DNA of 64,000 nucleotides from Owenia fusiformis (taxonomy: Eukaryota), in the NCBI GenBank assembly GCA_903813345.2, contig CAIIXF020000001.1, positions 23,808,001-23,872,000 of the forward strand, given 5' to 3'. A program made the translations under genes and the position numbers. Position 1 is the stretch's first letter; each line of letters starts with the position of its first letter. The notes beneath the pieces are model-generated. The model was given only the letters and a program-made list of their open reading frames with translations, was not told where the DNA came from and ran no database searches. This document shows positions 1 through 55,880 of the stretch, in pieces.

Positions 1-1830
1 ATTGGTATTATGAAATTGCTTTGATTGTGTTTTTGTATATCACATTTTATGTGTACACGGTAATTAATTACTGGCAACAATTCAACTTGAACCACCATAC
101 ATAAATAGAGATATGTTCTTTTATTTCAAAAACATTTGTTTCACATGACTGTTTGATAAATTGCCTAATATGCCCGAGGTCCTCCGACCTCCTTATGAGG
201 ACAGGAAATACTAGGACTATTAAATACGTTCTTACCTGTAGAGTGTCATTTATTAATGTACGGTAATTGATTTCAGATTAACCCCTCCCCAAATATCAAA
301 TGAACAATCATGTTTTTCTTCTCAAATAAACTGATTTGATTGCTGCTCCTTTGCTAACAAACAGTCTTGAACGTTATTCATTCAAATATAAATACACTGG
401 CGGATCCAGGGGGGGGGGGGGCAAAAAATTTGTAGGGACTCAGAAAATGGGCATATTTTGGCACAAGGCAATGAAAAAGCTTCCTTCAGATATAATTCCT
501 GTAATGTCCTTCCAATCTTAGAATACAGTCAGTATTTATATACATTAACATGCTATTATACCCCCGATTATACCATGTGTTTCAACTGCAATTTTACAAA
601 GATGGACACCTATAAGGCCACGATCACTGGTGACAGAGTCCATCTGTACTTATTTGAATAAATTGCAATTAAATCTGTTGAAAATATAAGATAACCTATG
701 AATCTTTTGAAATGAAAAACTACACACTTTAAGATGGATAAATAGCATTCAGTCTAAATATTATTTTAATATAATATAAATATACATCCAATAATTTATT
801 AATACACAAATACATATTTATGATGACAATAGCCTTTATTGCAAAAATGTATCAGCAAAAAGGACTCCATGAAAGACATTGAAAGTCTTGCCTCAAGACC
901 CTGGACCCAACCCTGCTTCGACAACAGTTGAAGTAGATAAGAGGGGGGGGGGGTCTTGAACCAAAACTATTACACGAAGAGTTAATCATCATTTGCAACC
1001 CCAGCTGCTCCTTACTATAATGAATATACATGTAGTCATTTTTTTTACTTGTGTTCTCATGTAGCGTGAACTAAAGTTAATGTACATTAAACATCACAAT
1101 TTATACTATTAAATATTAGACCCATTCAGGTTAATTAATTGTTTAGTGTGCATAAATCAAAAAGACTCAGTGACCAAGATAAAATTGTATCATAAGATAA
1201 AGGGGCTGATGTCTTGTACTTATGACAAAGATGTGCAAAGAGATATGACAAGATTATAAAGCCAAGAAAAGCTCGTTTGAAGGTTTTTCGATAATCCAGG
1301 AAGTATCTCTAAACAGATAATTAATTTGCATGGGCCTTATAATAAAACAAGGCTATGAAAATGCTATAAATATAATGCCTTGAACTGAACACAATTCTGG
1401 CTAGTCATATTATATTTATGTTCACGATTATTACTCACAGCATTTTGTATCAAAATTATGGATTCATTTACCACGCTGGGTGAAGGCAACTCAATGCAAA
1501 CACTTACAGAGAGCTGAATTGCTTCAGATTAATTTTGATTTGATATTAAAAAACAAAGCCAATTTGAAAAAGAAATTTTCAGGTTTGATTTTCTGAAGCT
1601 TGTTCATATACATATACAATTGTACATGTACATTTTTAGCATTAGGTAACTTATCTTAAACAATTAGCATAGGTTAACTTGTCTTAAATATATGTAAATT
1701 GAGCCTTCCATGCCAGGGGCCTAGAAAGGGAGAAAATATTTCACAAAAAGTAGTTCTGTTAATTTTTGATATTTTCAAATGTTGCATCTGCCTTTACCAG
1801 CGTGATTAATGACAGCAGCTATAGAGAAAT

Positions 1831-2272
1831 TCATGTTGAGATTTTAATAGTTTTACGTGTGTTGTTTTCAATGACAATTTTATCCTGGTAATTCTCAGTA
1901 CTAGGCAACCGTTTCCGTGGCAGCCTAGGTATAGGGTCAGCATGCAGAGAATCTGTCGTTGTGTTAATCATAACGAATCCATTCTCAGTGAAACAATTCT
2001 CTACAGTAGGCCTATCATCACTACCATTATCTGTTTCACCATTCACGTGACAGAATCCATTGTCATCATCATCCGAAGCAGTAATGCCTGTATCATCAGC
2101 AATGTTGCCATGGTTACCGTATCCATATATGTAGAATAGGTTATTTACTCGTACGACAAAATCAGTTAGGTTCGGATAAGAGTTAATAATGTTAGAGAAG
2201 TCGTGACGAGGCAATGTGGCATAGCGAATTATGTAACAATGAGCAAATACAACAGCATCCAGTTCAGTTGGG
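1831..2272 (-). CDS. MTX2: Metaxin-2 alternative terminal exon C (paralogous duplicate, long acidic tail); isoform 354 aa
   Basis: Acceptor tttgttttcaattctag|C CCA ACT GAA CTG GAT, same phase. Open 147-codon frame PTELDAVVFAHCYIIRYATLPRHDFSNIINSYPNLTDFVVRVNNLFY... aligns with the MTX2 C-terminal helices. Confidence 0.78.
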
Positions 2273-5200
2273 CTAGAATTGAAAACAAATGTTTCAATTA
2301 TTCCATCTGCCACAATTGAGAGTGTAATGTTAATTTAGCATTTTCTTAAATCTGAATCTGAATCTGAATCTGGGTCATATACAAAACATCAGCCATAAAG
2401 CATATAAACTCACACATTGTTTCATGAACTTTCAAATACTGTATTCTATAGACTTTCATACGATTTCCCTGCACCTCATGATTCTAGATGCATTTATTTA
2501 TAAGTCTTCTAAATCTAAACTATAGCATTGGTTAACCAGACTACCACCAGCAAGATGTCCATTCATTTTAATTTATTTTACTACCAAAGTTTAAAGAGTT
2601 CAAGAAAATAAGGAAATTACAACATGCCCAACAGCCTAAGCCTTGCAGGGAAGCAAATTATATCAAATAGTATGGATTATTGTTTAAATTCAGTTGCATT
2701 ATCAGATTAATATGGTCATTAAAGTTGCAATATGAAGGTGTTGGACTTATTCCAATTATTGTTCTGAGAATTGCTTATTACATTTCAATCAAATATCACT
2801 ATCATAAAAAATGCACTTAATCCAAGATGTAAAGTTGTAATTATTCTACAATGAAGCATGGATGTATCTGTATCTTTATACACGCATACGTATTGTAAGC
2901 CTAACTATTATATCCTATGTCTTTACATTCCTTGGAACTATTTTCAAGGCTTACTAAAAGAGCCCTTGTCAAACTGGGGTTATTGAGGGTCAAGGTCAAA
3001 GTCACATCTGACAAATCAAAGGTCAATACAGTAAACAGTGTAGATCCAAACACATCTCTAGTCTGAACACCTCTCATTGTGAAAACTTTTTCTTGATGCC
3101 AATTTTGTTTTACTAGTATAGTATCCCTTTGACACTCATTGCAATGGGATGTCAAGGTCACCTGCAAAGCTGATCTCTTACGAGTGTTGGGTTTACGGTC
3201 TGAGGTCATTCAAACAGTTACACTAAATAAACATGTGCCAGGGTTTCTGCCATTGTTTATGTCCCATTCAAATGAGTAATCTACGAGTTGAATTTAATTA
3301 GTGCTTACATGATCCAAATACTAATGTAATCTTACTGCCATATAATATGGGATGGTGATTAAACTATGGCTCATTGGCTCTCAATTTAAGACGTGAAGTA
3401 GTGCAGATAATTAACAAGTCTTAGCATTATTGGTCACAAGACACTGTCTTTTCCCACTTTTTTATCCCAAAATTTAGAATTGCCAAGTAATTTTCCCAGC
3501 AAGACCAAGACTTGATCTTGGAACTAGTCTGCTCTTGCATATGTAAAAGATTCAAATTGAATAGGTAAGTGTAACAGTAGGGTGCGCTTACAGCTAGCCT
3601 GCCTGCCCCCCCCCCCAATCCAGACAAACGCACATTCATCAACACAATACAACAGTATGAGGGTATTTGCTTTTAATATTGGAGCGAATAAAATAGCTTA
3701 GTTCATCCTGAAAATTCGGGAATATGTTGTGATTAGTTTGAGATTGGTGATGCAGAATGTGTAAGATTGTGCTCTAATTTACATAAAAAAAATTATTTAA
3801 TAAATGTGATCTTCAGTACAACACACAGAAAGATTAATGAAAACCTTTCAACATAATTTAATGTATGTAAAAAAACTTATTAACTCTTCAGCAGTTGTGC
3901 AATTAATCGCAATACAACTTACAATAGCATAAATAATCTAATAATTGGATTTGCTCAGCCTTAAGGGGGTATCAACACTTACATGTAGGTTAAGGAGCTT
4001 CACAAAGCCCATTTTGTCTAAGAAGCCTCGCAGGAAACCTTGACCTATTAAACTGACCTTGACCCTTCGGGATACTGAATGTCAGGTAGTCCTAAATACA
4101 ATTCTGATCTTTGTCATTTCAGATGATTGTGATAAAGATGGCATTGATCTTATGTGACATTTATACTGTAATAATTAAGAGCTTCAGTGAGCCTTAAAGT
4201 GAAAACACCCATAAATATTGACATCTCAAGTAGCATAAATTTACCTGTAAATGTGGCATTGAGCTTTCATAACCTGAATGGTGTGACATTGAGTCCAAAA
4301 ATTGCAAAATCGATTGGCATTTGACACATTGGGTTACCTTGATTCCATCCCTCAACGTTTCAATTTAAACCTACATTCCCTCTGATGAATCCTGCCTTGT
4401 TTGGTGACTTAGTAATCATAGATCACAGTGTAACCATATTCATCCCAGATACGACAAAGTCATAAATGCACATACCAAGAGGTGATTCTATAATGGAAGA
4501 GCCTGCTTTGTGAGTTTTAATATTCCACATTTGATATCAATACTTGATCAGATGTAACACTTCAAGGATAAACTCACCAAACGTAAGAACATGAATGAAT
4601 CTGCTTTGACATTTTCAATTCCAACGCAACTAACTCTTTCTACTATAATCATTAATTAATTAACACAGCAACTATGTACTCATTAACTAAAGCACCACAT
4701 TAGTATTAAATCTTTGCATGGCCTATTTCATATGATCTTAATTTTATCTTTTTATGACTAATTTACTGGTGTAGGTCAGATATGGTTATTAATTCAATTC
4801 ATATGAATATTGCTAAAAGGAATTATATTGTCAGTGATCTAAAATGTAATTTGATAAAAGTATAAGCTACATCCTTATTATAAGTGAGTGAGAACTGATG
4901 GAGATATCATTTGATGAAACTATTTTATTAATTTCATTATGTAATTGCTCCCATCTTTTAAAAAGCCACGGTCTAAAAAGAAACTTTGCCTCAATAAAGA
5001 AACTTTGCCCCACTCTTTGGTCTAAAAAGCACTTAACATGTAAAAGTTGAGGTAGTGTCGAGATTTTTAGGAAATATACAGGATTTGTATATGCTCAAAA
5101 TCACCCTCAATCTACAGAAACTCTAAAGGAACATGTTATTTCATTCTTCAAGCACTGAGTGCTCTCAAGGTTTGCTGTAGAAAGAAATAAGCAATTTGCC

Positions 5201-5860
5201 TCACAACATGAGAATATCATCCATTGATATCAATGATAAAATTAATATAGGATTGTGGCTTGTATAATTCCCCAATCAGGCAATATGGGAATTATAGAAT
5301 ATTTAAAAGAATGGATAATTTCCTCCTCATGGAGTTGCATGTGGGTGAATAAATGAATGATAAATCCTAATTGAATACGAAATTACATAACTTGCAACTC
5401 ACTGATACCATGATGTCATTTTGATGTACATTTATTTCCATCTGATTAATGGATTATAGAATTAAATTCCAGCAAAAGAATAGCCAGACATTACATAATG
5501 TTCTCTAGTTAATTATGCATAAGCATCAGGTGCATCAACAGATTGCATTGTGATATAAGGAACAGAATATGAGCAATTTATCTAATTTTATAAAGGATCT
5601 AGTGCACCCGCCATTATGATCTCCATATGAACAAAATGAATCATTTTTAGGTGTAACATAAAGAATACAATGTCACATAATACTGTTGAAAATATTTAAG
5701 CGTTTGGACCCACATGGGCTGAGGTTGAGGTCATTAAGTTCAGCAAGGGTGTATTGACTTGCCATTGGATGTGGTTCATTGACTTAACATGTGGATATCA
5801 TCAGATTCCAATGAAGGCCATTGGTTTCTATTGATTTTCACAAAAATACCTAAAATACAC

Positions 5861-5963
5861 TATGACCTGAATCGATTGCAAATTAAATAATTTCACAATA
5901 TGACACAAATGGTATATCACATCAGATGTGCAAATATAAAGTTTGCAATCGATTCAGGTCATA
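5861..5963. repeat. Perfect 22-bp inverted repeat with 59-nt spacer (mini-MITE or hairpin)
   Basis: TATGACCTGAATCGATTGCAAA (5861-5882) and its exact reverse complement (5942-5963); starts and ends in TA. Confidence 0.8.
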
Positions 5964-6759
5964 CTTCAAATTAAAGGCTTAGACATTTTTTTCATCATTT
6001 TTTTCCCTACAAAATGGCTATAGGAAAATGCTTCAAAAGCAACTTTTACACTTATGAAATCCCATACAACTTTGTAAATCCAAAGATTATACTGTTATGT
6101 TTCATTAATTAATAACATATTTGGATAAGATGTAGGGATGTGTAGGATGCAAATGGATTTTGACAGACACAAAAACACTTCCTGGTTTGGCATCTCAACC
6201 CCTGTACACTTTATGATTGAATATTGGCCCTAATAAGTGGCCCATTCATCAATACAGTGCTGAATATAGGTCAAAAAGATACTAGTGTACATATAAATGT
6301 AATAATAAAAGCAGTATTTTTATTTTGAAAAATCAGATGAATTATTTTTTTCTCATGGGGAGATCCCAATGGAGGGTGTATAAGGTCCTTTGTTACTTGA
6401 ATTATGCAAGCAATGCCAGACAGTTTGCGTGCATTTTAGAATCATGTACAGAAGATCATGCTAGGCCCTAAAAGCTAGCTCACAAGTGAACAAATATCAT
6501 CGTTTTGTCTTCACAAAGTTTATTTTTAACAATACTGCAACATGTGTAGCACATAAATACATGAAATACACTGAACAAATCGGTTAAAACAATCCGAATT
6601 AGATTCATACACAAAGGTATAGAAAACAATAAGCAAACGACGGGGTAATATAAGTGTTCAGTATAGGTAAGATAATGAATGGAAGCACACGCTGTATTGA
6701 AACATATTAAATAAGTTTTACGAGTTGCTATTAAATCCTAGTGCCTAATTCATTGAAAA

Positions 6760-7018
6760 TTAATCTCCATTCAGTTTAACAAAACTATCGTCACTATTTT
6801 CTCCATTGCTAGTTTGTCCATTGCCCTCCTGGTGGCGCTGAATTTCAGCTGTGCTGTCATTACGCCAAATCTCTGTGAAGTATTTATTGTCAATGTGAAT
6901 GCAGAATGCTGCAAGGTTTTCAAACTCACCAACAATGTGAGCTAAGTCCATCTTAGGTTGTGAAGTTGATAAAATAGTGAATAAGTGACCGAAAACTAGG
7001 GCATCGATCTCAGATGGT
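6760..7018 (-). CDS. MTX2: Metaxin-2 terminal exon B (closest to canonical MTX2 C-terminus)
   Basis: Acceptor ttgctcttacag|A CCA TCT GAG ATC GAT completes the phase-2 Arg codon. Encodes [18 protein letters not shown]...[14 protein letters not shown]...[11 protein letters not shown]. Confidence 0.9.
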
Positions 7019-10000
7019 CTGTAAGAGCAACATAAAATCTGCTTCATAAAACACTCAAAACCCTCAATTTTACTTATTTTTACAAAAACAATGAAAATTT
7101 AGAATTTTATAAAAGATATCTACACTATGTACAGTACAATATTCAAGTAACATGACGTGTTATTGTATTACTGACAAAACAAAAGCTATGCCATCTATCC
7201 TATGACTGATAAATAATTTTAACGGTTATCAGATGTTCTGAATCTTAGTCTACGATTATGTCTAGATTTACCATTGAACACAATGGTTGATTTTTCAGCG
7301 TCATTTTCATGTGGATGTTCGAGATTGTAGAACAATGCACCAACAGTTTGACACAGGTTGTTAAGGTTACGGTGACTTGAAGCTATCTCTATAAAGAGAT
7401 AGTGAGATAGGGTGTAGTCAGATAGGGTGTTAAGGTGTGCAAACACTGCAGCATCAAGCTCACTAGGACTGCAAGGAAACAGACAAGGAAACAGACAAGG
7501 AAAGCATGCATAGAAGACTAATACAGATCAACATGTACAGAATTGTAGCCAGGGACAGTTTCAAGACATTGCAGATCAAAATGGCTGATTTTCAAATGTA
7601 CTTCATGAAACAATATTAGAGCAATTTTAATGTTGTTTGTTATTTTAATGTTGCTAATGTTGTTTTTGAAAAATAGACCCTTGGCCGGGGTTAATGTTGC
7701 AAAAATCAAGACTTTGTACAATGTACTTTACTGGCAATTCAGATGATTCTAATGATTCACTAAAATAATAATCTAAGCTAAATATTCATATTGTTGATCT
7801 AGTTCTAATTTATACTTTCATTTATCTCAACTGGCTACAATCCAATACTGTAAAATAAGGGGAAGAAAATAAGGTGGAAATGTTGCAAGGTTCTAGCATT
7901 AATACATACAAAAAATGTACATAAGTAAAACATGTATATATTTGTAGAATGCTCAAGATTGAACACCTGAAAATGACATTTTACATCGAAGATGTTTGAA
8001 TGTAGATGTCCAATTGACATCTATGATATAGGCCCAATTCCCATTTGTGTTTAATATTGACATGTTTTACTGTATATACATGGAGTTGGTTGCAGCATGT
8101 TTCCTATTTATACAACAGAAAACAAATGTTTGCAAATTGTTTTTGGTAAGATAAGCAAAGCAATGTGCTATACACGAGGTAATCTGTTAAAATCAGCTCA
8201 ATATCACAACATACAAAGTACACGTACACCCACACACACATTCTCCAGTGCACACGTATAACTTATACTGTGAATTAATTACTCAGTATGAACATTCAAT
8301 GAAAGAAGACAATTTTGATGCAATGTTTCATATTCTGAATAATTTGTTGACATGTACAGGTACTAGACATTTCTTAAGACAGTTCTAGACTTATGTGGTA
8401 TCGTACATTTCAACATGACTAGGGTGACATCTATTACAATCCCTGGTGATTATTGACACAAAAATGTAATCCAGGTACAGAAGGTTGTATGATCATGATT
8501 AGTGTTCTTTATAATCTAATTTTATATGATTTTCCAAAACTTTCAATTGTGTGCATCCATTGGGAAGCAACAGCGACATAAAGCCTTTATTAAATGTAAC
8601 ACAAAAAAGCTAACAATTACACAATGCATCAAAATATGTCAAACCATTTGTGAAAAGTGCTCCACTTAAATTAATAATTAAACCCATCAAAATATTCTTA
8701 CCGATTGCCGAAGAAATATTGCTGATTGCCTAGCCTTTCCGAAAGTGCTGAGCAACACGTCCTAACCTCCTCACAGACCTCTTCATATGTCTTCTGTGCC
8801 CAGCCAAGAGCCTTCAGTTTGCGCCCGATCTCCATCTGTCGCTTCCAAGGCAAAATTATATTCAGAGGCCAAGGGTAGGGGGAGCCGTACCTAATTTTAG
8901 TCACCTCTGTATAAGTAGTGGTCTCACACCATGTTAAATAGAGCTGAAAACATATGATTAGGTTTACTGTATTTTTTTCTCTAATTTCAAATGTATCTTT
9001 CATACTAGCAGCAATGCAAAAGTTATGGGTTTCTAAAGTTTATTTCTGTGCCCATTAACATGATTCTTTTTTGAAACAAAACTTTGATCATATTATATCA
9101 TGGAGCATCGTACCTCAGCATTCACCATAACTTTGTCAATTAGAGACATATAAGCTCTCATCTCTGCTCTCTCTGAATCATTGAGGTTGTCACTCAGGTG
9201 ATGACCCTGGAATAACAAACAAAATAGACATTTCAATAAATCCTGACCCCATTATGGCAAAGCTTGACAGAATGAGAGTGCCAATGGGTAAATAGTTGTG
9301 GGTTTTTGATTCACGTAACACATTTCAATTTAGGAATGAGAAGTAAAAGGAATAATAACATTCATCAGAATTCCTGAATTTCATATTTCTGATGTTTTGG
9401 GTCCTTAGGGCTTACCTAACCGCTTCTTTTTAACAATGCAATAATTGTATCACATACATAGTAAACACATTAAGACAGAATGATATGAATAAGAAGGGCA
9501 TTTTTATGAAACAAGTTTGGAATTTCTATGCTACCAATGTTACAATTTTTTTTATTTTTAATAATCATTTATTTCATATATATACTATACATACAATAAT
9601 ACAATAATAACGTTTGACTAGGTTACAAGTAACATTATTGTCAAACTGTTACAATTAATGGTGATAACATTTGGAGAACCTCTTAAATGCTATAATTAAC
9701 AACATATTATGAACATTTCTTCAACCCCTTGCCCCTACTTGTGCAGTAAAATATGTCTGAGGTAAAACCTACTGGGACTTTAAATGTGATTACATTGGTG
9801 AAAGGTGTTCACATTTAGATGGTCTGACAAAATTGAGAAATTAAGAAAAAGAGTCTATATATTAAGGTGTTCGCTCAAGAGAGGTGTTCATAATTGCAGG
9901 TTTTATTGTACCGTATCTGGAGATAAAAGGTAACATTACACTTACCTTTGTATTGATAAAGGCTATAATTGGATCAAGCTCTGATATAAGGAAAGGCCCT

Positions 10001-13000
10001 ATTTTCATGAATGGCACTATACCTGTAACGGAAGAAGTGCTTTATAATACTGAAAACAATTTTCAATCAGTTGAAAACAATTTTTAATCATATTTAATTG
10101 GTTCACTGTCATTACACACACGTTTTTGATAATAACTTTGACCCATGATTTGAACATTTGCCCTATATTATTTGTTATTTAGCACATGTAAACTATATAA
10201 GTGTCCAAATCATGGGTTAAAGTTAAAACTTGTATGGGATACTATGTTAAACATTCAACATTTTTAATGTAGCTTGTCTTTTTCAAATGATGTTAAGCTC
10301 AAGTGCATTAATTTGAGATTATCTGATAAGTACTGGTACAGAATTAGATCACTGACGAATGAGTCATTCTGCTCAACCAGAATATATTGTAGGAAAACAT
10401 TAAAACATTTAAACATTTTCTCCAACAACTACATAACTATACAGCAGTGTGACAGTTTGTTTTTGTGAACTCACATTCCATAAGACATTTTTTCGAAATT
10501 TAGGCCTAGAAAATTTAAGTTAAGTGGAGTTGTACAACGTATGGAGAAATGCCTGCAGAGGGGGATATAATACCTGATGGCGACATGTTTTCTGCATTGT
10601 TACGCAGCTCTACAGTGTACTTCAGTCCACACATATTGAGGAACGTGCGAACACTAACACAAGACGCAGCATCAGGAAGCAAAATCTGTTTATCTACAAA
10701 GTTCAATTCAATAATGTTAATTGTACATTTGATTATGCATTATAGCCACTATTAACTTATACAGGGGAGCTACCCTATTGACAATTCAAAAATGCAAGCT
10801 ACCCCTCTGAAAATCTTTTATTACCCTGTCTTTAAGATGAAATATTTGCTGGAATTACACCATGCATTTAAGAAGGTGCCTACCTAAGGTTTTAACCCCT
10901 TTTGAAAAATAGAATCACGATTGTGGTTTTACAAAAGCGCTTTTCCAAAACTCCTAGGACCCAAGTCACTAAAAACGCCTCAAATTGTTAGGCACTTATA
11001 ATAATGGATGGGACCCAAAAATGCAATAGGTCATCAAATTATATCTCAAAAATTGAAAGTAAGTTCACATCACTGGCACAAGTCTCGGTTTTCTCTTCGA
11101 TGCTAAAAGAATACATTTATTGTTGATGTACACATATGCTGGATATTCTCCACATCTACATCGTTAAAAGTGCACAAAAGGCATTTTAGAAATGACAGGT
11201 GTAATTTCAAAATAAAATCCCTAAGGCGCTTTAAAAATGTTGGTGTAATCAGGATGGCAATTTTGTAAAGCGCTTTCTACTAAAGTGCTTTTTGCGCTTT
11301 TTCTGGTGTGATTCTAGCAATTAAGACCAAATTAGATAGAATAAGAATTTAGCATGTAATGTCTAATTTTGCAAGACATGTACAAGTACATATTTACAGT
11401 TATTTATTTATTATTTTTTTTATACATTATCAATTTATTTCATCATAATCATGTTTTACAAGAATGGCTTGCCAATCGCTTATAAAGCATTATAGGCTAA
11501 GCTAGAAAATACATAAATTTAATTACAAATGTAAATGCATGTAATATGGAAGAATAGCAGCAATTTGGATAAGAAATGGGAAATAGGACAGGCTTGGGTC
11601 ATGTGTCATAGTCTCAGTGAGGGGATAGTAGGCATAGTTAATACTTGCTTGGAGGGTCCCATAGAGAATTATGATTATGTTAAGAGTTCTCCAGTAAAAA
11701 ATTGGCAACAAGAGCAAAAAGTTCATTATTTTGTGCCAGCGATAAATCGTCACTGCCATGTTTCAGAAAATCTTTAAATTGGCTTTTGTTCCTTATAGCT
11801 AAAGGCTTGTAAGTCTCTACAAGTGCAAGAAAAGTGTTCCTATTTTGTGCTTTATTTGGACAATAAAAGAATAAATGTTTTGGAGTTTCAGGCACACCAC
11901 AAGCGCAGTTTGGTGTTTCAATATAAGTAAAATTATGGCCATATAGCTGAGCTTTAGTGAGCAAGTCAACTCTGAATCTATTGAGAATTATTTCTTGATT
12001 TCTTTTTAACTTTAATTTAGTAGTTGGTAAAAAGGAGGGCTTAGGGATTTTAATTTTTTGTAAGTTATTGAAGCTGGTAATTGTTTTGCTTTCTCGAATA
12101 TACTTCGGTAGCTTGTTCCAGTGGGAGATAGCATTGAGGACAGAAGAGTTTCTAAATTTGGTTGAGCTTTTGGCAGGTATTTTGAAATCAGGATTTGATC
12201 GGAGTTCTCTGGGATTTTGAATCCTCAGAGGTTCAAAGATGTCTTTCACATAGCTTGGAGTGAGATTATTTTTAACTCTAAACATGAATTTATTTATTTG
12301 CATTGACCGCCTTGTTTCTAGATCAGGCCATGTGAGTGTATTCTTTACCTTAATTGAACTACTACCATGTAAACATCCACTGCATATAAGAGCAGCTTGA
12401 TAGAATAATTTATTTAATATGTTAAGGACACTTTGAGTAGAGGAATCGTAGAGTATTGCGCCATATTCAAAGTGTGGTCGAATGAAAGACATGAAAATTG
12501 TTTCGAGGACATTGGAATTTAGTTTCTTTTGCAGTGATCTGAGAGGATTCAGGAGTTTGTTTACTTTGTTTCTTATGGCAATTATATGTTGTTTGTTAGA
12601 CATGTGCTCGTCAAAGGTATAGCCTAAATGTTTATGCGATGTTTCCCTTTTTATTAAAGCATTATTCATAAAGGAATTGTTCACTTGGCCAAGTTTAATT
12701 CTGGAGTTATGAAAAATTATTTCGACACTTTTTTCAGGTTTAAAGTTGAGATTCCATTATTTACAGTTATTGTATCTACATGTATATTACATGGTCATGG
12801 TGTAATTTATAGCTTGCTGGTTGAATAACACTATTAAATAACATTATAAAATATAAATATGCATGAAGAAAATGTATGATTTCAAATCAAACACAATATA
12901 TTTTAATGATTTCTATTCAAATTACTAACATTGAAAATGACCTTCATTTTCCAAATATTTCATTTCTCAATATTTTGATGATTATGACATGTTTTGGTAG

Positions 13001-16000
13001 GTATGACATCTTAACTTACTTTCATATGGCTGGAAAAGGCAGACATTATCTGGCCATGGCTCACTTGCTAAAAATACAAAAATGAATAATTAATGTTAAA
13101 GGAAGTCCAGTAGAGGGGGTTACCATATTTTCTTTTACTTCAATGTTGTTGAACAAAATCAATGCTTACTGGAAAGTCAAGAAAAAGTCAGGCTATGCTA
13201 AATTTAAAAATAAACAATAAGTTGTTTGGAAATATTTTCAGCATTAAAAGGAGAACTTATCTTGCACTTCACTAGTGCTGAACCTAATATACTCAGTACT
13301 AGACTTTGTTAGGTGGGCTAAATATCCATTTATACTGGGGTATATATAAGTAAGTAACATGTATGTTAATCTGTGATAATACCTTGGTTATATACACATG
13401 TACTTTGATCTCTCAAAATACCTTGGATATGCTTATTTTTATGCTATAAAGAGAATCTCATCCCTATCTTAACAGAGATAAGTATTGACATGAAATTTGT
13501 AATTCTCAAACCTCACAACAATACACTTTATCTGGAACCATATATATTGTTCCACGTTAAAATAAGACTTTACAAGTTCATTCTCTGAATTAAAGTATTT
13601 TATAAAAGTTATTAAAGTATAAGTCACAAAAGAAATGTTAAAATATCTTAATACTTTTCTTGTTTTTTATACATTTTATCAAAACATTCTTCTCTACATT
13701 CTTTTCTGGGTACATTAGTGCACTCCTTGTGTAAAAGTGAGAGATGTAGACATTGTGGGGAAGGAGTGATTCAAATTTGAAAAATAACATGTGACCCTAT
13801 TGAGGGTTGCAGCGAAAATTCCAAACACGCACCATGACCTTATGATTTACGAATAGACAGACCCCGACCAGTTGCCACTCTCCATAGTTGGGTTCACACG
13901 GTTGGTGGTCAGTGGTCAAAAACAATGAATATGATCAACATGTATTTAATTTCGAATTATATAAATAATTTAAGGTTACACATGATCATTATTTTACCCA
14001 TTTCCCTCTTATCCTGTTTTGAGATTTTCATTTTCTTTTACCCACCAACTCATTTTTGTAGCCGTCAACTCAGTTTTTCATTCTCATCTCATTTACCAAT
14101 CAAATACTTAAATAAAATCTAAATGTTTGTTACATTTACCAACCATAGTGTCTGTAATTTCCGGTGGTGACGGTGGCCCAGAAATGAGCTGACTGCCCAA
14201 TAGTATCACAAAGAGGAGGGAAAACTACAGAGCACAGAGATGACCTCATTACTTCTCTTGCTCACCATATTTGTCTACTATAAACGAGGGCGAACGTAAT
14301 ACCCGGAACGTGCCTCGTTTATTCTGACAGTGTGTGTTACCCCCCATTGGACATGAGGCCCAGAGCTGAATATCTATTAAACTGACGATAATCAATTAAT
14401 CATGAAATACATTATCGTGACGCTGTTGGCTTCATTCCCGATCCAGGAATCCGAGATCCAATGACTCTATATGAAACAAGAAGCAAGTTCTCATTGTGGG
14501 AGATATTTATGTTAATGACCATGTTTTCAACTATTGCAAATTAGTCTACGGTATTATGTTTGGTAAAGAGTGTCTGGGAGTGTCAGGGACTGCCAACAGA
14601 TTGCAATTTTTCAATCCAAAAACTGAATTATAATTTTTGGTGGTGTCAGTTAAAGCTTCAATAAAGACCATAAAAGAAATTTGGGAGTCATTTTACCTTT
14701 CCTGGGCTATTAGTGCAACGTTTGGCCTAATGTCTTCTTCGCCATACCTATTTTCTTAAAATATATGCACTTGTCAACGAATACCATCAATCAAGACTTG
14801 CAAATAGACTTCTAAATAAGCAATTGAAAGGATGGACATCATGCATTTGTTTTTTGAAACATTTCTGAATCTCCGCCATTTAAGATTCTTACTGCAGCTG
14901 AGATTAGATAAGACCGCATGTTTATAGTATAACCATGGTTGTCTGATATAACCGTATGCATGGTACACGATATGACTGCCGTCGACAGTCTATTACCAGC
15001 GACTCTTGCTGTTAGCCTGGCCCACTGATGAAGAAAAATCAAAAAAAATTGAAGACTAAAAAACGTCAAATCTACCCATATTCAAGGTCTTATTGACACG
15101 CGCATCATGGTACATAGCAAACAGAATGTTGGATAGAACATTAGGTGAAAACGGGTCTGGAATCCAATGACAATATCACTGGGAAATCATTAAAAGGTAT
15201 GTGAGCATTTTTCTGTCGATGTAAAATGGTTTCAGGAGAAGATTACTGGGGATTTAGGATGATTAGTGATTGTGAATATCAGCAGAAATTATGTACGTTC
15301 GGGGGTTTTCTTTGTAGCAAATGAAAATAGATGTTAGTATTGATGAAATATCCAAACTTTGATATATTTTGACAGCAGTTTCATGATCGTTGAATATGTC
15401 TCTACACTATTTACTCAACTTTAATTGTTGACATAATCACAACCTAATGTTTTTACAAAATCAAAAAGCAATGCACGCTATAAATGTAACTTTTTTTCAT
15501 TCATTCTTCTCACCATGTACCCTTTGCATTCGTTCGACTTCACTTCTAAAAGAGAGCTCCGTCTTCACTCTTTCAGTAATAATAAATCTCTGATCTCACA
15601 GAGCAATCAGAGTTCGTCATCGAGATACGGACGACTTTCTACATGGTCATTTCCTATGACATCACGGCAAAGTTAATGAGCATGTATATAGCACACGTTC
15701 CTTCCACTTCGCTGATTTGTTGAGAAAGGGTCAGCATGGTAGATTTGAAATGATTTATTACCTGCCCTTAAGAAAAAAGCCATGGTAACCATGGTATTCC
15801 ATGGTGCGTCCATGGTAATCCATGGTTTTCCATGGAAATTCATGGTTTTTCATGGTATTTTCCATGGAAATTCATGGATACCCATGGTAATCTTCCATGG
15901 ATATTTACCATGATTTTCCGTGGTAATTGGTGGTTTGGTAATTGTTTTTTCATGAACATGCCATGTTTTTACCATGACACTTGAGTTGTAAAATCAACAA

Positions 16001-18288
16001 TTTTGGCAGGTTTTGTTTTTACCAAAATCTTCAAAATTGAATCAATATTTTAACGAATGAATCCAAGCTGGATTGAGAATTAATCTCATTAATCATAGAT
16101 AAAAGAATATGACACCCCCCACCCTTAAATCTTTGAGAAAGTCAACCTTCTTGACAAAAGCTGGCTTCAGGCTTGAAATACAACCATGTTTTTACAATCT
16201 GAATATATGTTTAGTACATTCTGTACATAGTGTCATATGACAAAGAACTGTTTACTTAATATTTTTTTAATTGATGATTTGACCCCACAATTAAAAGTAA
16301 TAATTTGTTTGCTGGGATTTGCTATCATTTAACTTTGGCACTTATGTAAAAAAGACAAAATAAGTGATAAAATCAGCTCACTGGATTCCCTTATTGCAGA
16401 CTGAATAAACATTTTTACTTGGAGTAAATCCTATTTGGTTTTATTTGATCAACAATGAGTTTTTGACTTGCACTGTCTACACTCACAGACAATAATAATT
16501 ACTGAAGAGGGAGCATTAGAAAGAGTAAGATTATCATATATAATAACAATTAAGATCAGAATATTTAAGAATTGTGCAAATGAACTCTTATAATCTGTTG
16601 TAAAGAGATTAATCTTTTGACATTAATTTGAGAGTTAAGACACCTAATTAACATAGAATAATGGCAACCAAATATTTAAAAATTATGCAAATGATTATTT
16701 ATTCCTATTCAAAGACAAATCAATTTTAATTACTTATACTATGTTTCATGTTTTAAGCCAAATGATGTTGTTAACCCCCTCCCCTTCCTTCATGCAACTT
16801 CTTTTTAAATATAATATTCTTACATAGACAAATTGATTTTTTATCACTTAGGTATAACATTTCAGTTTGCAGCCATAGGCTTGTGTTTAATCCCCCATCT
16901 CAATTTCAAGTCAAAATTCTGTAAAAGTATATACTTTTCTGTGGATTTTTTCAGATAATATGCTTATAAAGGTTGAATGGGACTTAATTTGGAGAAGTTC
17001 ATTTAGAAACATAATGTATTATTCATTTTTCTGCTTCCAAAAGACCAAACAAATAGCCCATGGAAAACCATGGACTTTCAAAAGATCAAAAGAATAATCA
17101 TGGAAAACCATGGCTTTTGATTGCACTTTCCAAAACATCAAAGAAATAACCATGGAAAAGCATGGCTTTCGATTGCAATCAACCGTCTTCCATGGCTTTT
17201 GATTGAAGTTTTCTCAACTTCAAAGAAAGAAACCATGGTTTGTGATTGTATTCTCAAATGTACGAAATGTAATTTAAGAAAATGAGTTATTTATTTCTTA
17301 AATTACTTCATATTGATTTTTAAAACTGAAAATTAAAGAAAGTATTGAAATAAAACAGAGCTTGGGCTAGTTTGACTTAATCTTTTTCAAAGGAAAGAAG
17401 TGTTTGGCCTAAAAAATAAGCAATCTCTATCTAGTCTTGATCTACACAAAAGACCTTTGCACAATTGTTTTTGAAATCTTGTGACCTACTCTCTGCTTTG
17501 CTGTTTCACATATTTTCTCATTTGTAAGCTGAGTCTAACATTCGATGAATGTTCTTGCTATACCTTCAAAATGAAATGTCCACCCTTTTTTCTCAATGAT
17601 AAGTCTCAGTCAAAACATTCATTTTGGAGATTTTGGTAAATACAAATCCTACCAAAATTGTTGATTTTACATCTCCGTGACACATCCATTAAAAACCAAT
17701 TACCAAACCAACAATTACCACGGAAAATCATGGTAAATATCCATGGAAGATTACCATGGGCATCCATGAATTTCCATGGAAAATAACATGGAAAACCATG
17801 AATTTCCATGGAAAACCATGGATTACCATGGGCGCACCATGGAATACCATGGTTACCATGGCTTTTTTCTTAAGGGTGGGCTATCACAAGCATCAATCTT
17901 TAGGGCGGGACTGCTAAACTGTAATATAGTCTATACTAGGAAGAGGGTAGTTTATAACTAGTCTAGCTACTCAACATGTAATCCAACAAGATGAAGTCTT
18001 CGAATTGGACTTGTAGTTGTACATGACCTGAATGAATGAAAGGATTCGATGGGCTGAGACTTAAAATTATAATTCGAACTTTGTCAATTTAACATGTGCC
18101 TCTATGGAGAAACAGTAGGTTACATTATTTGTATCAGTGTTTCACCCATTTTTATTTTATGTGGGCGATAATATGTGAAAGTCAAAAGTTCAATTTTGAT
18201 AATTCATTAAAGCTGTAATAAGTAAGCAAATTCACAATAACATACCTCCTAGTTCAACTGCTATAGGTTGCTCTATTAAACTAGCCAT
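6760..18288 (-). CDS. MTX2: Metaxin-2 (mitochondrial outer-membrane SAM-associated, GST fold), canonical isoform using terminal exon B; 293 aa
   Basis: Exons on the minus strand: 18288-18246, 13067-13020, 10693-10574, 10022-9946, 9206-9114, 8943-8702, 7018-6760. All introns are GT-AG with matching phases (1,1,1,0,0,2). Translation [42 protein letters not shown]...[13 protein letters not shown]...[11 protein letters not shown]...[32 protein letters not shown] is recognisably metaxin-2 (recognised from memory, no search run). Confidence 0.93.
7219..7468 (-). CDS. MTX2: Metaxin-2 alternative terminal exon A (paralogous duplicate); isoform 290 aa
   Basis: Acceptor tctgtttccttgcag|T CCT AGT GAG CTT GAT, same phase as exon B. 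Open 83-codon frame [20 protein letters not shown]...[16 protein letters not shown]...[11 protein letters not shown] aligns with exon B. Confidence 0.75.
11405..12757 (-). mobile_element. 5'-truncated CR1-group non-LTR retrotransposon (3' end of ORF2) in MTX2 intron 2
   Basis: ORF 11680-12757 encodes the post-RT region [10 protein letters not shown]...HKHLG...FIRPHFEYG...[18 protein letters not shown]-rich tail near 11405-11421. 14-bp TSD TATTTACAGTTATT at 11391-11404 and 12758-12771. Confidence 0.92.
15514..15563 (+). repeat. About 50-bp dispersed repeat, second copy at about 56554-56604
   Basis: CATGTACCCTTTGCATTCGTT(C/T)GACTTCACTTCT(T)AAAAGAGAGCT(C/T)CGTC at both sites. Confidence 0.75.
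15765..17876. mobile_element. Non-autonomous DNA transposon with about 270-bp TIRs built of CCATGG-containing subrepeats (CMC/EnSpm-like)
   Basis: Left end CCCTTAAGAAAAAAGCCATGG, right end CCATGGCTTTTTTCTTAAGGG. Inverted similarity spans about 15765-16040 vs 17610-17876. Flanked by TG on both sides (possible 2-bp TSD). No transposase ORF. Confidence 0.85.
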
Positions 18289-18615
18289 TATTGCATTATT
18301 TTAAGTCCAGAATCCCTGTAGAAATCACCTATGAAGTGTCTTGCGAAAAAAAACTAACTTTTAGAATGCATGACGCGACCCAAAACAGTTTGTCGAACTG
18401 TTGAGACAAAAATGATGGGACTGCAAAGTAACTAATGAAATCAAGCAAAAACAATATTGGTATACCTTTGCAATCATATAATTGCTTTTTTGAAAAATAC
18501 GTGCGAAAATGCAGAAATGTTTACCAATAATTTATTTTGGGTGTGTCATGGACAAAATGGCCATGTGATGAAAACAATCTAAAAATGTAAATGACATCGA
18601 AACATCTCCAGAAAC
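18289..18615. promoter_or_regulatory. Bidirectional promoter region between MTX2 and the ZNF654-like gene
   Basis: Divergent start codons at 18288 (-) and 18616 (+) are separated by only 327 bp. Confidence 0.7.
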
Positions 18616-27600: not shown

Positions 27601-30600
27601 TTTTATCAATATTTCAAAAAATTACATTGAAAGTACATGTGATAAACAATGTACAGGACAATATAAAAGTGCAATGATAACACTCCTTTCACCTTTATGT
27701 TTCCTTGGAATGCACATTGATACATTGACACACAGATTTTATTTGCAAAATCTTGATTTTGATTAAAGCTCACTGAACTGACATGTTTTATGAAAAACCA
27801 ATCTTAATTTAGTAATTTTATGGTTTAAACAGTTTCAGTTCTTGTATGATAACAGAAAACAAGAATTCCAAAAATTAGTGAAAATCTACATTAAAACTTG
27901 ATATGTTGTTATAGGAATTAATGCAAAACTTACTTTAATATCTAATCTTGAATGTGTCATATTTGTTTTCTTTTCAGTTTGGTGACAAATTCCTTCAGTT
28001 CAATACAGAGTTGTGTCTCCTGGCACTGAAAATAGAGACTGGTCATGTTGAGAGGGCATATGCCACTAATGACTGTCATGGTCTAGATAATGCCGCAAAT
28101 GCTCTAACATTCACCTGTCACATCATGTCTTGTCTATACAGAGACAGCAACCTGAAGATGCGTCAAGTCTGCTCATTAACTGCCCTGTCTCTAGATCCCT
28201 CTGAGGATCTCTACTTCCTCGTTGAGGCTTTGTTTAATATCGTAGAAGACACTGATAATCTGGACCTGGCAAATAAACAGGTCGTCAATAACAGTATCAA
28301 TGCATTCAAGCAGTTCCTTAGCAAACATGAGGACAATGACCAACATGGAGATGTAAAGGAACAAAAGAATGCTGACAATAGTGACAAATCAAGTGATGTT
28401 TCAATTCACCAATCAGAGGAATCTGCCGATCATAAGGCAGATAATACTCCGAATGACAAATCAGATGACTTACATCGAGGTAAATCACCCAAAGACAACG
28501 AACATAGAAAAGAAAAGCATGCTCAAGCTATTCCAAATAGAACTGATATGAATAATAATAAAGGGAAGAAGAAAGGAAAAGGTGAAGAGGAGAATAACTC
28601 AAAAAAGGAGTTTTCTCGTAGTTTTGAATCAGTATTCAAGAAATTTGCAGGTGTAACAGATACAAAAGTTCCCGAAGAAAAGAAAACTGACCCTGAACCC
28701 AAATCATCAGTTCAACCTGAATCCTCTGTACCTAAAAATGGGCAAGTAGGTGGAGGATTCATGAAAAACTTCCATGAGTTCATTCGCCAAAACACTGCAA
28801 GAAAGCAGTCATGCTGGCTGAGCAAAACTAAAGAAAGTGATTTGTCTAAGTCATACTTAAAGACACCATCAAGCATGGGGGCAACTCCACCTGAATCTGA
28901 TGAGGATATACAAGGGGAATACCATATTGTAGTGAAGGGTATTAATCCAGAGACCATAAGTGAAATACTTCGTATTTTAGCAAGCATTCGAGCAAAAACT
29001 CTAGATCCAAGTCTACCATGGGAAAAGCTCAAGCATCGTATTCTACGACATCTTTGGGTGAATGGATACCACTTTGATGTGCACAAGAATGATTTTTTCT
29101 CTGGTACATCTGCAGTAGTTCAGGTTAAACCTATAAGTCAGAGTGTACTTGACAGCATTACTGAGACTGAATTGCAGAGTGAATCAAACAGCCCTGTAAA
29201 GAGCAGTAGTCCAATTAGGGTCAGTAGTCCAGAAAAGGGAAACTATTCTTCAAGGAACAATAGTCCTATAAAGCTAAACAGTCCTATGAAAGGCAACAGT
29301 CCCATAAAGTTCAATAAATTACAGAATCATTCAGTTCAACAATCCAAAGAAAGTTCTAGTCCAGGTCGTAGACCAAAATTCAAGGGTATTAAACAAAAGA
29401 CTTCACAGAGTGAAATTGAAAGTATTACTGAAAAATCTCAACATCAAGACAATGTAGACAAAAGGCCATCGATTATCCATGACAGTCCGGTGCGGAATTG
29501 TTTTGATGCCCTCAAAAACATAGATTTTACATCAGCATATGAGCATCACTTAACAGAAAGCCATCCTAATGCAAACATCCTAAATGACAAAGACTCTTCC
29601 AGAGACGGACAACCCCCATCGCCTTCCCAAAGTCCACCCCTCTTATCACCCTTTGACAATTCCACAGAAGGGGACCATAGTTATAGTATAAGACAAAAAT
29701 CCAATGGTTCTACTGAATCTCAGTCCTTCAAGAACACAATGAACGATAGTGTAAAAAGGATTAAAATTTCACCTAGGAGACAAACATGTCCCGTTTTCTG
29801 TAATGACGATGATGAAGTGGCTCTGTCTAAGATACAAACTGCGATAAGAATCAACAAGATGGAAGCGAAACTCATCACCAAGCATGCCATCGAGAACAAG
29901 GTGAGACTTCTTTTACTTTCTGAAACTTCTAATCCTCTCTCTGTAGCTAGAAATTTCAGGGATGGTGATAGAGATCGGCTTGTTGCTGATGTTGCTGCCG
30001 TAGTAGCTGGAATGAATAGTATGTCCATAAAGACCAAGATGTATGGTCTAGATGTTCCACAAAGCAATGAGAAATTAATGTCTACATTTAAGCTGTCATT
30101 GAGTGAGATCATAGAAAGGTTACCATACCATGTAAGTCAATCCCATCGTCAGCATGAATTTGAGAACCCCAAAAAGAGGGACAGTTCCCCAATGCATGTT
30201 TCTGGAATTGATAATATTGAAAGACCCCCTCCTCTCCCTATGTCATACACTTCATACTCCAATTTCATTCCCTTGCTTGATGAAATGTTGACTAGTCTAG
30301 AGAACGATATGGCTTTAGAGAAGAAGAAATTAATGGAAAGACTTGGGAAAGCGTTTCAAGATATGTGTGATAAGTCTGTTGCAAGGGAGAACGTTACTTC
30401 GAGTGTGGAAATCGAACAGAGTGAACCTCCATCTGATGAGATTACAGACTTTACTGATCTTGGTGGCAGCAAGAATCAAACACTTACAAAAAATTTAAAT
30501 CGTTCAAATATTGATGAACTATGTAATCAATATCACCATGATTGTGATCCAGATACTATTGGAGAGCCTGTAAAGATGGATGCTGCTACTCCAGTCGAAG

Positions 30601-54563: not shown

Positions 54564-55880
54564 GGTTGCTGTTAATGGTGTCAAGAAGTTCTTGCGTTAC
54601 AATGGAAATGTAAACCTCGCCTGGAAATAAATTTAAAAAATCAATGTGATTAATATTAAAGTATAATTCCTTTAAATACAAAAGTTCATCAAAAATAAAT
54701 ATTGATTTTTAATGCCTTAAATTTGCAATTCCTTAAGTTTCCTTGTTAACTTCCTTAGTATGGTGAGAATTTTTGAGAATTTTCACGCATCCACTACAAG
54801 TGTACTAAATTATCTATATCTTTTATTCAGTATAAGTCAAACAGTGATCAAATGTTACAAAAGAGAATCAGTTAAATTAAACTTGGTTTACCTAGCTCTA
54901 ATCCTAATTCAGAGATTGATTAATTTGCTATGAATGCAGATACAGCTGTTCAATCTAACATGCTAAACTGTTGCTGTCTAACTTGTATTGATTTTGTAAT
55001 AAGCAAGATGACATTGCACATTGATGCATATGTACCACAAGCATGTAGATTAATACTTAATAGCATCAATTGTATAAGTCTATTTTTGTTTATGTTTTTC
55101 ACCTCGGGTATTAGTTCAGTTAGTTTGATTAACATTTAAATATTACCTCATGACCCACCTACATATCCGAAATATGAGTTACCATGGGAACCATATTTTT
55201 TTTCCAATAAGTGGATAATGGGACAAACAAAAAACTGTTCAAATTTAAAGTAAAAGTCACAAAACTGTTATTTTAGGAGACTTTTTCTCAAAGGTTATCA
55301 ATCAATGAGGTACTCATGCCCTGTCATTAGATGGAAAAAATGAACAAAGGGAGAGGAACCGATTTCTGCTTGAAAGTTAGCAATCTTGGAAGATTCATTT
55401 TTCCCCTATAAAGTTTACGAATAAATCTCTAAATGAATAGGTGCAATGTATTTAATAATTTTATCTTAACTGATACACTTCTAAGGTGTGAGATCTTTTA
55501 AAAAAGGGTGCAAGGCCACCAACGTGCACAAATCAGTGTTTTTGCTATAAATCAAGACAATGGTCTACATGACCTCTAATTAATACTTATAAGTGACATT
55601 TTTATTACAAAAATAATGCCATTGTTAGTTTTTCAAAACAAGTTTCTTGCAGATTTGAAGCATTTCCTTGCAGAAATCAGCTACTCTCCCCTCTGTTCAT
55701 CTTTTCCGACCACATAGCGTAAAACTACTATTCTTTATTAAAGATATTAACAGATGAATCTGAATATGAATGATATTATTTTCTCTGCTCTATAAATAAT
55801 AACAATCCCTTTAATAGGTATTAGATATGCTGTTGTTTCATGGTTAACTTGACATGTATACAACTTACAAACATGATGTA

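Follow-up and report, generated by a model that had tools for sequence, protein, structure and literature searches.

A putative LC3-interacting region in the tail of invertebrate metaxin-2 and three tandem candidate last exons in the annelid Owenia fusiformis

Can a subunit of the mitochondrial import machinery be given different tails by the choice of its last exon, and do those tails carry a functional signal? The question is raised by a 64,000-nucleotide stretch of the genome of the annelid Owenia fusiformis (contig CAIIXF020000001.1, positions 23,808,001 to 23,872,000), referred to here as the window. Its minus strand carries a gene for metaxin-2, a peripheral protein of the mitochondrial outer membrane that belongs to the sorting and assembly machinery (SAM) complex. 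Downstream of the last shared exon of this gene lie three candidate last exons, A, B and C, whose tails contain no, one, and two copies, respectively, of a short motif that resembles an LC3-interacting region (LIR) for proteins of the Atg8 family. The first-pass annotation of this DNA had proposed that selection among the three exons could act as a splice switch on a candidate mitophagy receptor. From the comparison of tails described below, the exon B motif is a conserved, LIR-like short linear motif of invertebrate metaxin-2. To the overall reading, in which this conserved tail motif is a predicted LIR for Atg8 in a metaxin-2 with a triplicated last exon, we assign a probability of about 0.35.

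The metaxin-2 gene and its candidate last exons

The gene model was fixed by tblastn of protein P0005 on the window, combined with the splice joints of three raw RNA sequencing (RNA-seq) runs that carry the species label. All three runs derive from one study, and approximately 6, 6, and 12% of their reads were used, over positions 1500 to 18600. P0005 comprises 293 residues, is named Owenia fusiformis Metaxin-2 by UniRef, and showed 100% identity over exon B in a protein search with that exon; exons 1 to 6 and last exon B sum to 294 codons. The protein displays the domain architecture of metaxin-2, with matches to PF17172 (GST_N_4), PF10568 (Tom37), and PF17171 (GST_C_6). Its best named matches are the metaxin-2 proteins of molluscs, a brachiopod, arthropods, and vertebrates, and the orthologues are 50 to 64% identical. 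No PDB chain matched P0005 at an E value of 0.001 or better. All six constitutive junctions were present in each of the three RNA runs, supported by 7 to 23 reads apiece. The name metaxin-2, already given in the first-pass annotation, is borne out by the Tom37 and GST_C_6 matches, the identity over exon B, and the named orthologues, and we regard both the identity of this minus-strand gene and its structure as nearly certain.

Exon 6 closes with CG in front of a gtaaga donor, and the third base of this Arg codon comes from the next exon. The starts of exons A (7468), B (7018), and C (2272) each adjoin a pyrimidine tract followed by AG, and each supplies the third base of that same codon. Since the acceptors share one phase, the three candidates can be considered tandem paralogues of a single exon. 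Pfam treated them alike, recognizing the second half of GST_C_6 in all three (Table 1). As judged from their sequences, the tandem triplication of the metaxin-2 last exon is solid. Identity over the 52-residue domain part amounts to 14/52 between A and B, 15/52 between B and C, and 20/52 between A and C (27 to 38%), values low enough to indicate that the duplications are old; A and C appear to have a more recent common ancestor with each other than with B. The acceptor of exon A (7471 to 7500, minus strand) contains the longest pyrimidine tract of the three, in which TTCCTTGTCTGT occurs twice as a direct repeat. It was unused in the RNA sampled.

Table 1 Exons, candidate last exons, and tail motifs of Owenia metaxin-2, in window coordinates
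Feature	Position	Strand	Evidence and remarks
Exon 1, coding part (start codon 18288-18286)	18246..18288	-	tblastn, P0005 residues 1-14, 100% identical; RNA joint 13067-18246 (14, 16, and 19 reads)
Exon 2	13020..13067	-	tblastn; RNA joints 10693-13020 and 13067-18246
Exon 3	10574..10693	-	Sequence and tblastn; RNA joints 10019-10571 (cut +3) and 10693-13020
Exon 4	9946..10022	-	Sequence and tblastn; RNA joints, 10-18 reads per run
Exon 5	9114..9206	-	Sequence and tblastn; RNA joints 8943-9114 and 9205-9945 (cut +1)
Exon 6, last shared exon (translation P0004)	8702..8943	-	Pfam Tom37, 29.2 bits, and start of GST_C_6
Candidate last exon A (P0001): end of GST_C-like domain and basic, motif-free tail	7219..7468	-	GST_C_6, 26 bits, under the 28-bit cut-off
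Last exon B (P0002): end of GST_C domain and 37-residue tail; the used and annotated copy	6760..7018	-	GST_C_6, 39 bits; RNA joint 7018-8702
Exon B tail motif (core FVKL at 6783-6772)	6763..6801	-	DSFVKL fits cLIR and xLIR; pLDDT ~41-57, coil
Candidate last exon C (P0003): end of GST_C-like domain and 98-residue tail	1831..2272	-	GST_C_6, 36.9 bits, E = 3e-9
Exon C motif 1, SDDDDNGFCHVNGE, at the position matching the exon B motif	2035..2076	-	tblastn of B against C; fails cLIR and xLIR
Exon C motif 2, ENGFVMI	1966..1986	-	Fails cLIR and xLIR; N at the first of the six positions

The tail motif in Owenia and in other metaxin-2 proteins

The core of an LIR, [W/F/Y]-x-x-[L/I/V], occurs once in the tail of exon B (FVKL) and twice in that of exon C (FCHV and FVMI). 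Bases 6795 to 6772 of exon B encode SDDSFVKL, which is directly preceded by E-N and followed by NGD and the stop codon. In exon C, SDDDDNGFCHV at 2076 to 2044 is followed by NGE, and ENGFVMI at 1986 to 1966 has a T one codon ahead of it (1989 to 1987). Translation of the three frames thus reproduced the tails as the first-pass annotation had quoted them, apart from residues directly adjoining the intervals it gave. Its description of exon A was equally accurate: the 34-residue tail contains no [FWY]xx[LIV] and ends in a basic stretch. Of the pattern shared by B and C, exon A keeps only N-G (TIVFNGK). The pattern common to B and C was recovered by tblastn, in which the two tails align at this place (DDNGFCHVNGE in exon C), whereas the stretch that links the domain to the motif can no longer be aligned.

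Four-residue cores arise readily by chance, as the first-pass annotation itself had warned, and the warning applies to Owenia. In 20,000 within-tail shuffles, one acidic-flanked [FWY]xx[LIV] core was obtained in the 37-residue tail of exon B with a P of 0.09 to 0.11, and two or more in the 98-residue tail of exon C with a P of 0.03 to 0.07. The Owenia cores on their own are therefore not beyond chance. The extended pattern common to B and C, which was defined after it had been seen, appeared in 0.0002 (B) and 0.0005 (C) of 200,000 shuffles. This fits the descent of both tails from a common exon with the motif retained.

Evidence that the motif is more than an accident came from other metaxin-2 proteins. 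A search of exon 6 against 1.84 billion representative proteins returned 235 matches at E ≤ 0.001, the best 150 of which were listed, and a search of P0005 against the named collection returned 230 at E ≤ 1e-10, the best 120 of which were listed. Among the relatives listed, 171 allowed the end of the GST_C domain to be anchored, and 76 of these possess a tail of at least 10 residues. The pattern [DE]x0-4[FY]x[KRQ][LIV] is present in 38 of these 76 tails, compared to a mean of 1.15 and a maximum of 6 in 500 shuffles; counted over distinct tails, it is present in 32 of 69. The more permissive [DE]x0-4[FWY]xx[LIV] is found in 44 of the 76 (shuffle mean, 7.71; maximum, 15; 500 shuffles). The 31 distinct 16-mers spanning the motif have a consensus consisting of a Ser run, [DSG]-[SNE]-[GDE]-N, and [FY]-[VED]-K-[LIV], often followed by P and the C-terminus. 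F or Y at position 0 and L, I, or V at position +3 are present in all 31, K at +2 in 27/31, N at -1 in 17/31, and P at +4 in 15/31.

Most of the carriers are crustacean-like sequences, joined by bees; examples of their tails are SDDSDNGNFVKLP (crustacean-like), SSKSSDNFEKL, and GNGEGDYDKLEDL. Carriers that have a species name include the malacostracans Oratosquilla, Macrobrachium, Penaeus, and Armadillidium, the bees Xylocopa and Hylaeus (SEDSF[EI][LK]L), and the wasp Microplitis (NYDKL). The remainder come from contigs (JGI, Logan, and ENA) roughly 1 kb in length; the named sequences nearest to them, to which they are 63 to 89% identical, belong mostly to malacostracans or an orthopteran. Metaxin-2 of a beetle (DTDWLVI) and of stink bugs ends in other acidic tails with an aromatic-x-x-aliphatic core. 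The Owenia sequences NSDDSFVKL (exon B) and SDDDDNGF (exon C) are very close to the crustacean-like consensus. Because a Ser/acidic run followed by [FY]-[VED]-K-[LIV] recurs in crustacean-like and bee metaxin-2, we interpret it as a selected short linear motif rather than an accident, and consider it probable that the tail motif is functional.

The distribution of the motif also supplies points that count against the overall reading. The first-pass annotation had looked to spiralian orthologues for conservation, and there the expectation failed: only 1 of 22 other named spiralians, the chiton Liolophura (ESDFEEV), has a similar ending. These 22 comprise 19 molluscs, a brachiopod, a nemertean, and the annelid Lamellibrachia, the last of which lacks the motif. 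In addition, the counts of orthologues are not phylogenetically independent, with most of the positives falling into two arthropod clades. A FastTree tree was built from 138 of the 171 anchored rows, leaving out those with fewer than 215 residues before the tail and 17 redundant vertebrate or fused models. The contig carriers nest within its arthropod part, and Owenia falls into a lophotrochozoan group of 32 rows with a support of 94, which is not starred. Rows were labelled LIR-like (34/138) by an ELM-like pattern, which undercounts the DNGNFVKLP group and is conservative in that respect. The label requires at least 14 changes on the tree, 5 of which are forced by starred branches. On these sequences, the motif would be either ancestral to protostomes and often lost or the product of more than one origin, and either way selection is implied.

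Tails of two other groups are worth recording. Many mollusc metaxin-2 proteins (P0159, P0165, P0171, P0167, P0161, P0162, and P0164) terminate six residues past the domain, with an aromatic residue in last place and N or acidic residues ahead of it, as in DLNNDY, QLDNDY, KFGREY, and KAGHTF. These short ends may be truncated remnants of a longer Ser/acidic-[FY]-x-K-L tail. The metaxin-2 of the coelacanth Latimeria (P0244) has an invertebrate-like tail, DHEKDSSSGESGFSKGLL, with a Ser run, an acidic residue, and G-F-x-K...L in altered spacing. The other vertebrate metaxin-2 tails are Ser-rich and lack an aromatic core.

Similarity to LIRs was assessed with the two published six-residue patterns, cLIR and xLIR, taken from PMC5119064. 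The statement that the Owenia tails contain LIR-like motifs held in part: DSFVKL of exon B matches both patterns, and NGFCHV and NGFVMI of exon C match neither, which speaks against exon C as a source of LIRs. Among the 76 orthologue tails, 6 match cLIR (0.43 expected) and 14 match xLIR (1.77 expected). An AlphaFold2 model of P0005, built on an alignment of 65 sequences, had a mean predicted local distance difference test score (pLDDT) of 89.3. Residues 20 to 255 are folded with confidence (86 to 98), residues 273 to 293 are coil, and the last three 10-residue blocks score 57, 49, and 41. According to this model, the tail of exon B is probably disordered and accessible. We infer that it faces the cytosol, metaxin-2 being a peripheral outer-membrane protein.

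Other classes of motif were compared by eye with their definitions and set aside. An FFAT motif (two phenylalanines in an acidic tract) would need an acidic or phosphorylated residue where the tail has K. Many tails extend past L by a P or by more residues, contrary to a peroxisomal signal of the -SKL type. Most instances have F in place of the tyrosine of a YxxL sorting signal, and the motif is not always terminal, as a C-terminal PDZ ligand would be. A SUMO-interaction motif and a clathrin box were likewise rejected.

In the mechanism that we propose, the exon B tail motif is most likely an LIR. Its aromatic and aliphatic residues would be accommodated in the two hydrophobic pockets of an Atg8/GABARAP protein, and acidic or phosphorylatable serines ahead of the core would strengthen or gate binding. 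The tail would thereby equip the SAM complex with a predicted, cytosol-facing docking site for Atg8, as human SAMM50 does by means of its FVEV LIR. Exon C, with two diverged copies of the motif, would probably serve as a minor or condition-specific alternative ending, and the motif-free exon A would be silent or decaying. On the sequence evidence, Atg8 is a reasonable, though tentative, candidate for the partner.

The tail can be explained in two other ways. A functional motif could dock a different cytosolic protein, such as the tetratricopeptide repeat (TPR) domain of kinesin light chain or the Miro/TRAK machinery, its likeness to an LIR being superficial; this is a serious alternative, if somewhat less likely than not. 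An association of metaxins with the Miro/TRAK machinery for the transport of mitochondria is known, and the sources, as far as they were available, do not map the binding site. The best-conserved features extend past the LIR core, since LIR definitions ask neither for N at -1 nor for K at +2, which is nearly invariant, nor for P at +4, which is frequent; this hints at a partner that reads more than the core. Most carriers, namely those of the N-F-[VE]-K-L group (DNGNFVKLP and SDNFEKL), fail both cLIR and xLIR on account of the N directly before the aromatic residue. Human MTX2, moreover, bound no human ATG8 in the GST pull-downs described in the accessible part of PMC8160579, but it does not possess this tail. 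All of these points tell against Atg8. An acidic or Ser run in front of an aromatic-x-x-aliphatic core is nevertheless the textbook layout of an LIR, and exon B satisfies even the strict cLIR pattern. Cargo motifs of kinesin light chain have W or Y with acidic residues on both flanks. The Owenia and FVKLP-type motifs, in which F is followed by V-K-L (V-K-L-N in Owenia), differ from this definition, and only the malacostracan GDYDKLEDL comes near it. The remaining explanation, that the motifs are functionless chance products of acidic low-complexity tails and recur through the shared ancestry of arthropods and by coincidence in Owenia, seems improbable to us. It can draw on the chance level of the Owenia cores, on the many false positives that the iLIR authors report for xLIR-type patterns (PMC5119064), on the concentration of positives in few related arthropod clades, and on the spiralian relatives that, Liolophura excepted, lack the motif. 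It does not account for the excess over shuffled tails, for the persistence of the motif in clades whose tails otherwise differ (YDKLEDL, NFEKL, GNFVKLP, and SEDSFIKL), for the close match of both Owenia endings to the crustacean-like SDDSDNGNFVKLP, or for its retention in B and C across a linker that no longer aligns.

Use of the last exons and surroundings of the gene

The junction of exon 6 with exon B (8702-7018) was represented by 23, 16, and 13 reads in the three RNA runs, 52 in total. RNA depth over exon B (bin 6639 to 7209) was 12.5, 10.5, and 10.7. The 3' part of exon C (bin 1500 to 2070) was covered on the strand of the gene at 1.98, 1.6, and 1.44, approximately one-seventh of exon B. 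Its 5' part together with the intron (bin 2071 to 2641) was covered at 0.21, 4.76, and 0.49, where the value of 4.76 takes in intronic reads near 2470 to 2510. Exon B is the dominant ending in the sampled RNA, exon A is silent, and exon C is at best minor.

Several aspects of these data weigh against a metaxin-2 with alternative tails. Over exon A (bin 7210 to 7780), the depth was 0, 0, and 0.09, zero in two of the runs. No junction from exon 6 to A or to C was present among the 15 joints listed of 24. At one-seventh of the depth of B, exon C would yield about two to three junction reads per run, at or below the listing threshold of three, so the absence of its joint decides nothing. The RNA amounts to a small share of the reads of one study, and most placed reads are only 95 to 99% like the window (1,224 of 1,417 in run X13), so that a 95% threshold may lose reads from divergent exons. 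A further run, X1, which is labelled "RNA?", behaves like DNA, with a depth of about 10 across introns, and was used only as a second individual. Finally, no protein ending in A or C was found in the collections searched, where exon C was compared with longer proteins (213 candidates, none of which scored) and exon A was not searched alone. The same comparison with exon B returned P0005 as its only match, and of the 230 matches of the full-length search, the best 120 included a single Owenia protein.

A splice-switched last exon, as the first-pass annotation envisaged it, was thus not confirmed: the only last-exon junction listed leads to B, exon A is silent, and for exon C there is weak coverage but no listed junction. 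We consider exon choice as a regulated switch unlikely, and a switch among zero, one, and two motifs is the weakest link of the proposal. That there is no switch, with exon B as the sole functional ending, A and C as relics of old duplications, and the exon C reads as intronic, read-through, or unrelated transcripts, is a real contender, although we would put it at somewhat less than even odds. It agrees with the exclusive listing of the 6-to-B junction, with the depths over exon A and over the exon C bins (0.2 to 2, other than the one bin and run with intronic reads), and with the protein collections. It also agrees with the polyadenylation signals and with the domain scores. Exon A is under the Pfam cut-off, and no AATAAA or ATTAAA lies between it and the acceptor of exon B; from the stop of exon C, 991 bases separate the first such signal downstream (AATAAA). 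Frame length is of limited help here, because an unexplained open frame of 102 residues (2901 to 3209, minus strand) lies between exons B and C, with an RNA depth of about zero and no detected relation to metaxin-2. Evidently, an open frame some 100 residues long need not be a gene in this region, and length alone therefore says little for exon A.

The identity of 27 to 38% marks the duplications as old, yet both frames are still open. Shuffling the bases of each exon gave a P of 0.007 for the 82 codons of A and a P of 0.00005 for the 146 codons of C. Both exons have an intact acceptor and the domain's invariant residues E, D, and H, and exon GC is coding-like (0.39 to 0.40, versus 0.34 for the window). 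These features suggest that A and C remained coding during most of the time since they arose. Exon C, moreover, still matches GST_C_6 (E = 3e-9) and retains motif 1 at the position of the exon B motif. Both variants visible in exon C (1923 and 1957) are synonymous, a sample of two that is too small to weigh, and the same applies to two nonsynonymous variants in the exon B tail (6814, Q to H, and 6830, Q to L), which are located in the linker outside the motif.

The surroundings of the gene contain several other features. Downstream of exon B, 802 bases (5587 to 6388) are missing from the contig of another individual, as indicated by an X1 joint at 5586-6389. The region around them is transcribed on both strands, its repeat depth is very high, and it includes an inverted repeat at about 5830 to 5990. 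The missing bases have the appearance of a high-copy element whose insertion is polymorphic, located in the 3' untranslated region of exon B or just past it. The intron between metaxin-2 exons 2 and 3 contains an open frame of 358 residues (11680 to 12756, minus strand) that is like the C-terminal part of a retrotransposon reverse transcriptase, with RNA reads on both strands and a high copy depth in run X1. A second frame of the same retrotransposon-like kind, 558 residues in length, is located at 56953 to 58629 (minus strand). On the plus strand, a single open frame of 2,420 residues (27939 to 35201) is rich in Ser, Pro, and Lys and includes several near-identical repeats of about 30 residues (LGQPTQLTQSLSIPWTGNGLNSSAVTSSA). 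A frame of 393 residues at 53415 to 54596 (minus strand), with several hydrophobic segments and a His-rich loop, looks by eye like a ZIP-type metal transporter.

Comparison with known systems

A search of the full-text literature, which did not extend to subscription journals and supplements, found no published metaxin-2 tail motif, metaxin-2 LIR, or alternative last exons, and a term search of a preprint on invertebrate metaxins found no occurrence of motif, isoform, or autophagy. A preprint on Drosophila Mtx2 reports, in the part available, that human Mtx2 rescues the fly null mutant and mentions Atg8 only as an RNA interference knockdown that fails to rescue lethality. If the fly protein has such a tail, the rescue would make that tail dispensable for the essential import function.

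The vertebrate protein, human MTX2 included, is an orthologue and likewise a peripheral SAM subunit, and the Tom37 and GST-like domains of vertebrate orthologues are 48 to 53% identical to those of Owenia. The difference lies in the tails, which in vertebrates are short or Ser-rich and do not contain the aromatic-x-K-L core. Outer-membrane mitophagy receptors with an LIR, of which FKBP8, BCL2-L-13, and FUNDC1 are named in the legend of Fig. 6I of PMC8160579, resemble the arrangement predicted for Owenia, in that serines or acidic residues immediately precede [WFY]xx[LIV] within a disordered segment exposed to the cytosol. These receptors are membrane-anchored, dedicated proteins with demonstrated binding, whereas metaxin-2 is a peripheral subunit of an import machine whose motif is known from sequence.

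With respect to gene structure, the locus recalls the metaxin-2 genes of bees. In the model of Habropoda laboriosa (P0226), the last-exon region occurs twice in tandem. Copy 1 matches the ending of Xylocopa (37/57 identical), in which the long tail with SEDSFELLI is found, and copy 2 matches the plain ending of Andrena (37/47 identical). In P0226, annotation has probably joined two alternative last exons into one, and the matches of its copies to Xylocopa and Andrena thus indicate that bees also have two paralogous last exons, with and without LIR-like motifs. Comparison of Habropoda, Xylocopa (P0271), and Hylaeus (P0025) with Andrena (P0245) supports the likeness to Owenia: a last exon duplicated in tandem in one gene model, with one ending long-tailed and matching cLIR (EDFEVI, DSFIKL, and DSFELL) and the other plain. 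Expression of both endings in one species was not seen among the bee models compared. Bees have two copies and Owenia has three, and their roles are reversed; the canonical copy of bees is plain and the diverged copy has the motif, whereas in Owenia the motif is in the canonical copy, B.

Tandemly duplicated alternative or mutually exclusive exons occur in animal genes. The Owenia copies are similar to these in being paralogous and of the same phase, each providing the same structural element in a variant sequence. They differ in being terminal, so that a choice among them would couple splicing to 3'-end formation, and in that use was seen for B only. The triplicated last exon can serve as an example of exon duplication acting on the regulatory tail of a protein. 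A more far-reaching possibility, which we regard as quite improbable, is that an acidic, phosphorylatable C-terminal LIR of metaxin-2 is old in protostomes, that through it metaxin-2 serves many invertebrates as the SAM subunit that docks Atg8, the part played in mammals by the N-terminus of SAMM50, and that exon duplication in Owenia and, independently, in bees turned it into a splice-selectable dial of zero, one, or two motifs. Such a dial would control the ease with which autophagosomes receive mitochondria or pieces of the outer membrane.

The closest functional parallel is human SAMM50, the core of the SAM complex. According to the accessible part of PMC8160579, SAMM50 binds ATG8s through an N-terminal LIR with the core FVEV (peptide EEAEFVEVEPEA), and the basal lysosomal turnover of SAMM50, MTX1, MTX2, MIC19, and MIC60 depends on this LIR; MTX1 binds ATG8s independently of the LIR docking site. 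On that partial account, the two motifs belong to the same complex and the same cytosolic face, and both consist of an acidic run and F-V-x-[VL] followed by proline or acidic residues. The Owenia tail would likewise provide the SAM complex with a direct, predicted docking site for Atg8. It differs in its location, the C-terminal tail of metaxin-2 in other animals, and in having K instead of E at the third position of the core, and binding has been demonstrated for SAMM50, whereas the metaxin-2 motif comes from sequence comparison. If invertebrate metaxin-2 has an LIR of its own, the Atg8 docking site would have moved between SAM subunits during animal evolution, and piecemeal mitophagy of the import machinery would be older and more widespread than the mammalian data show.

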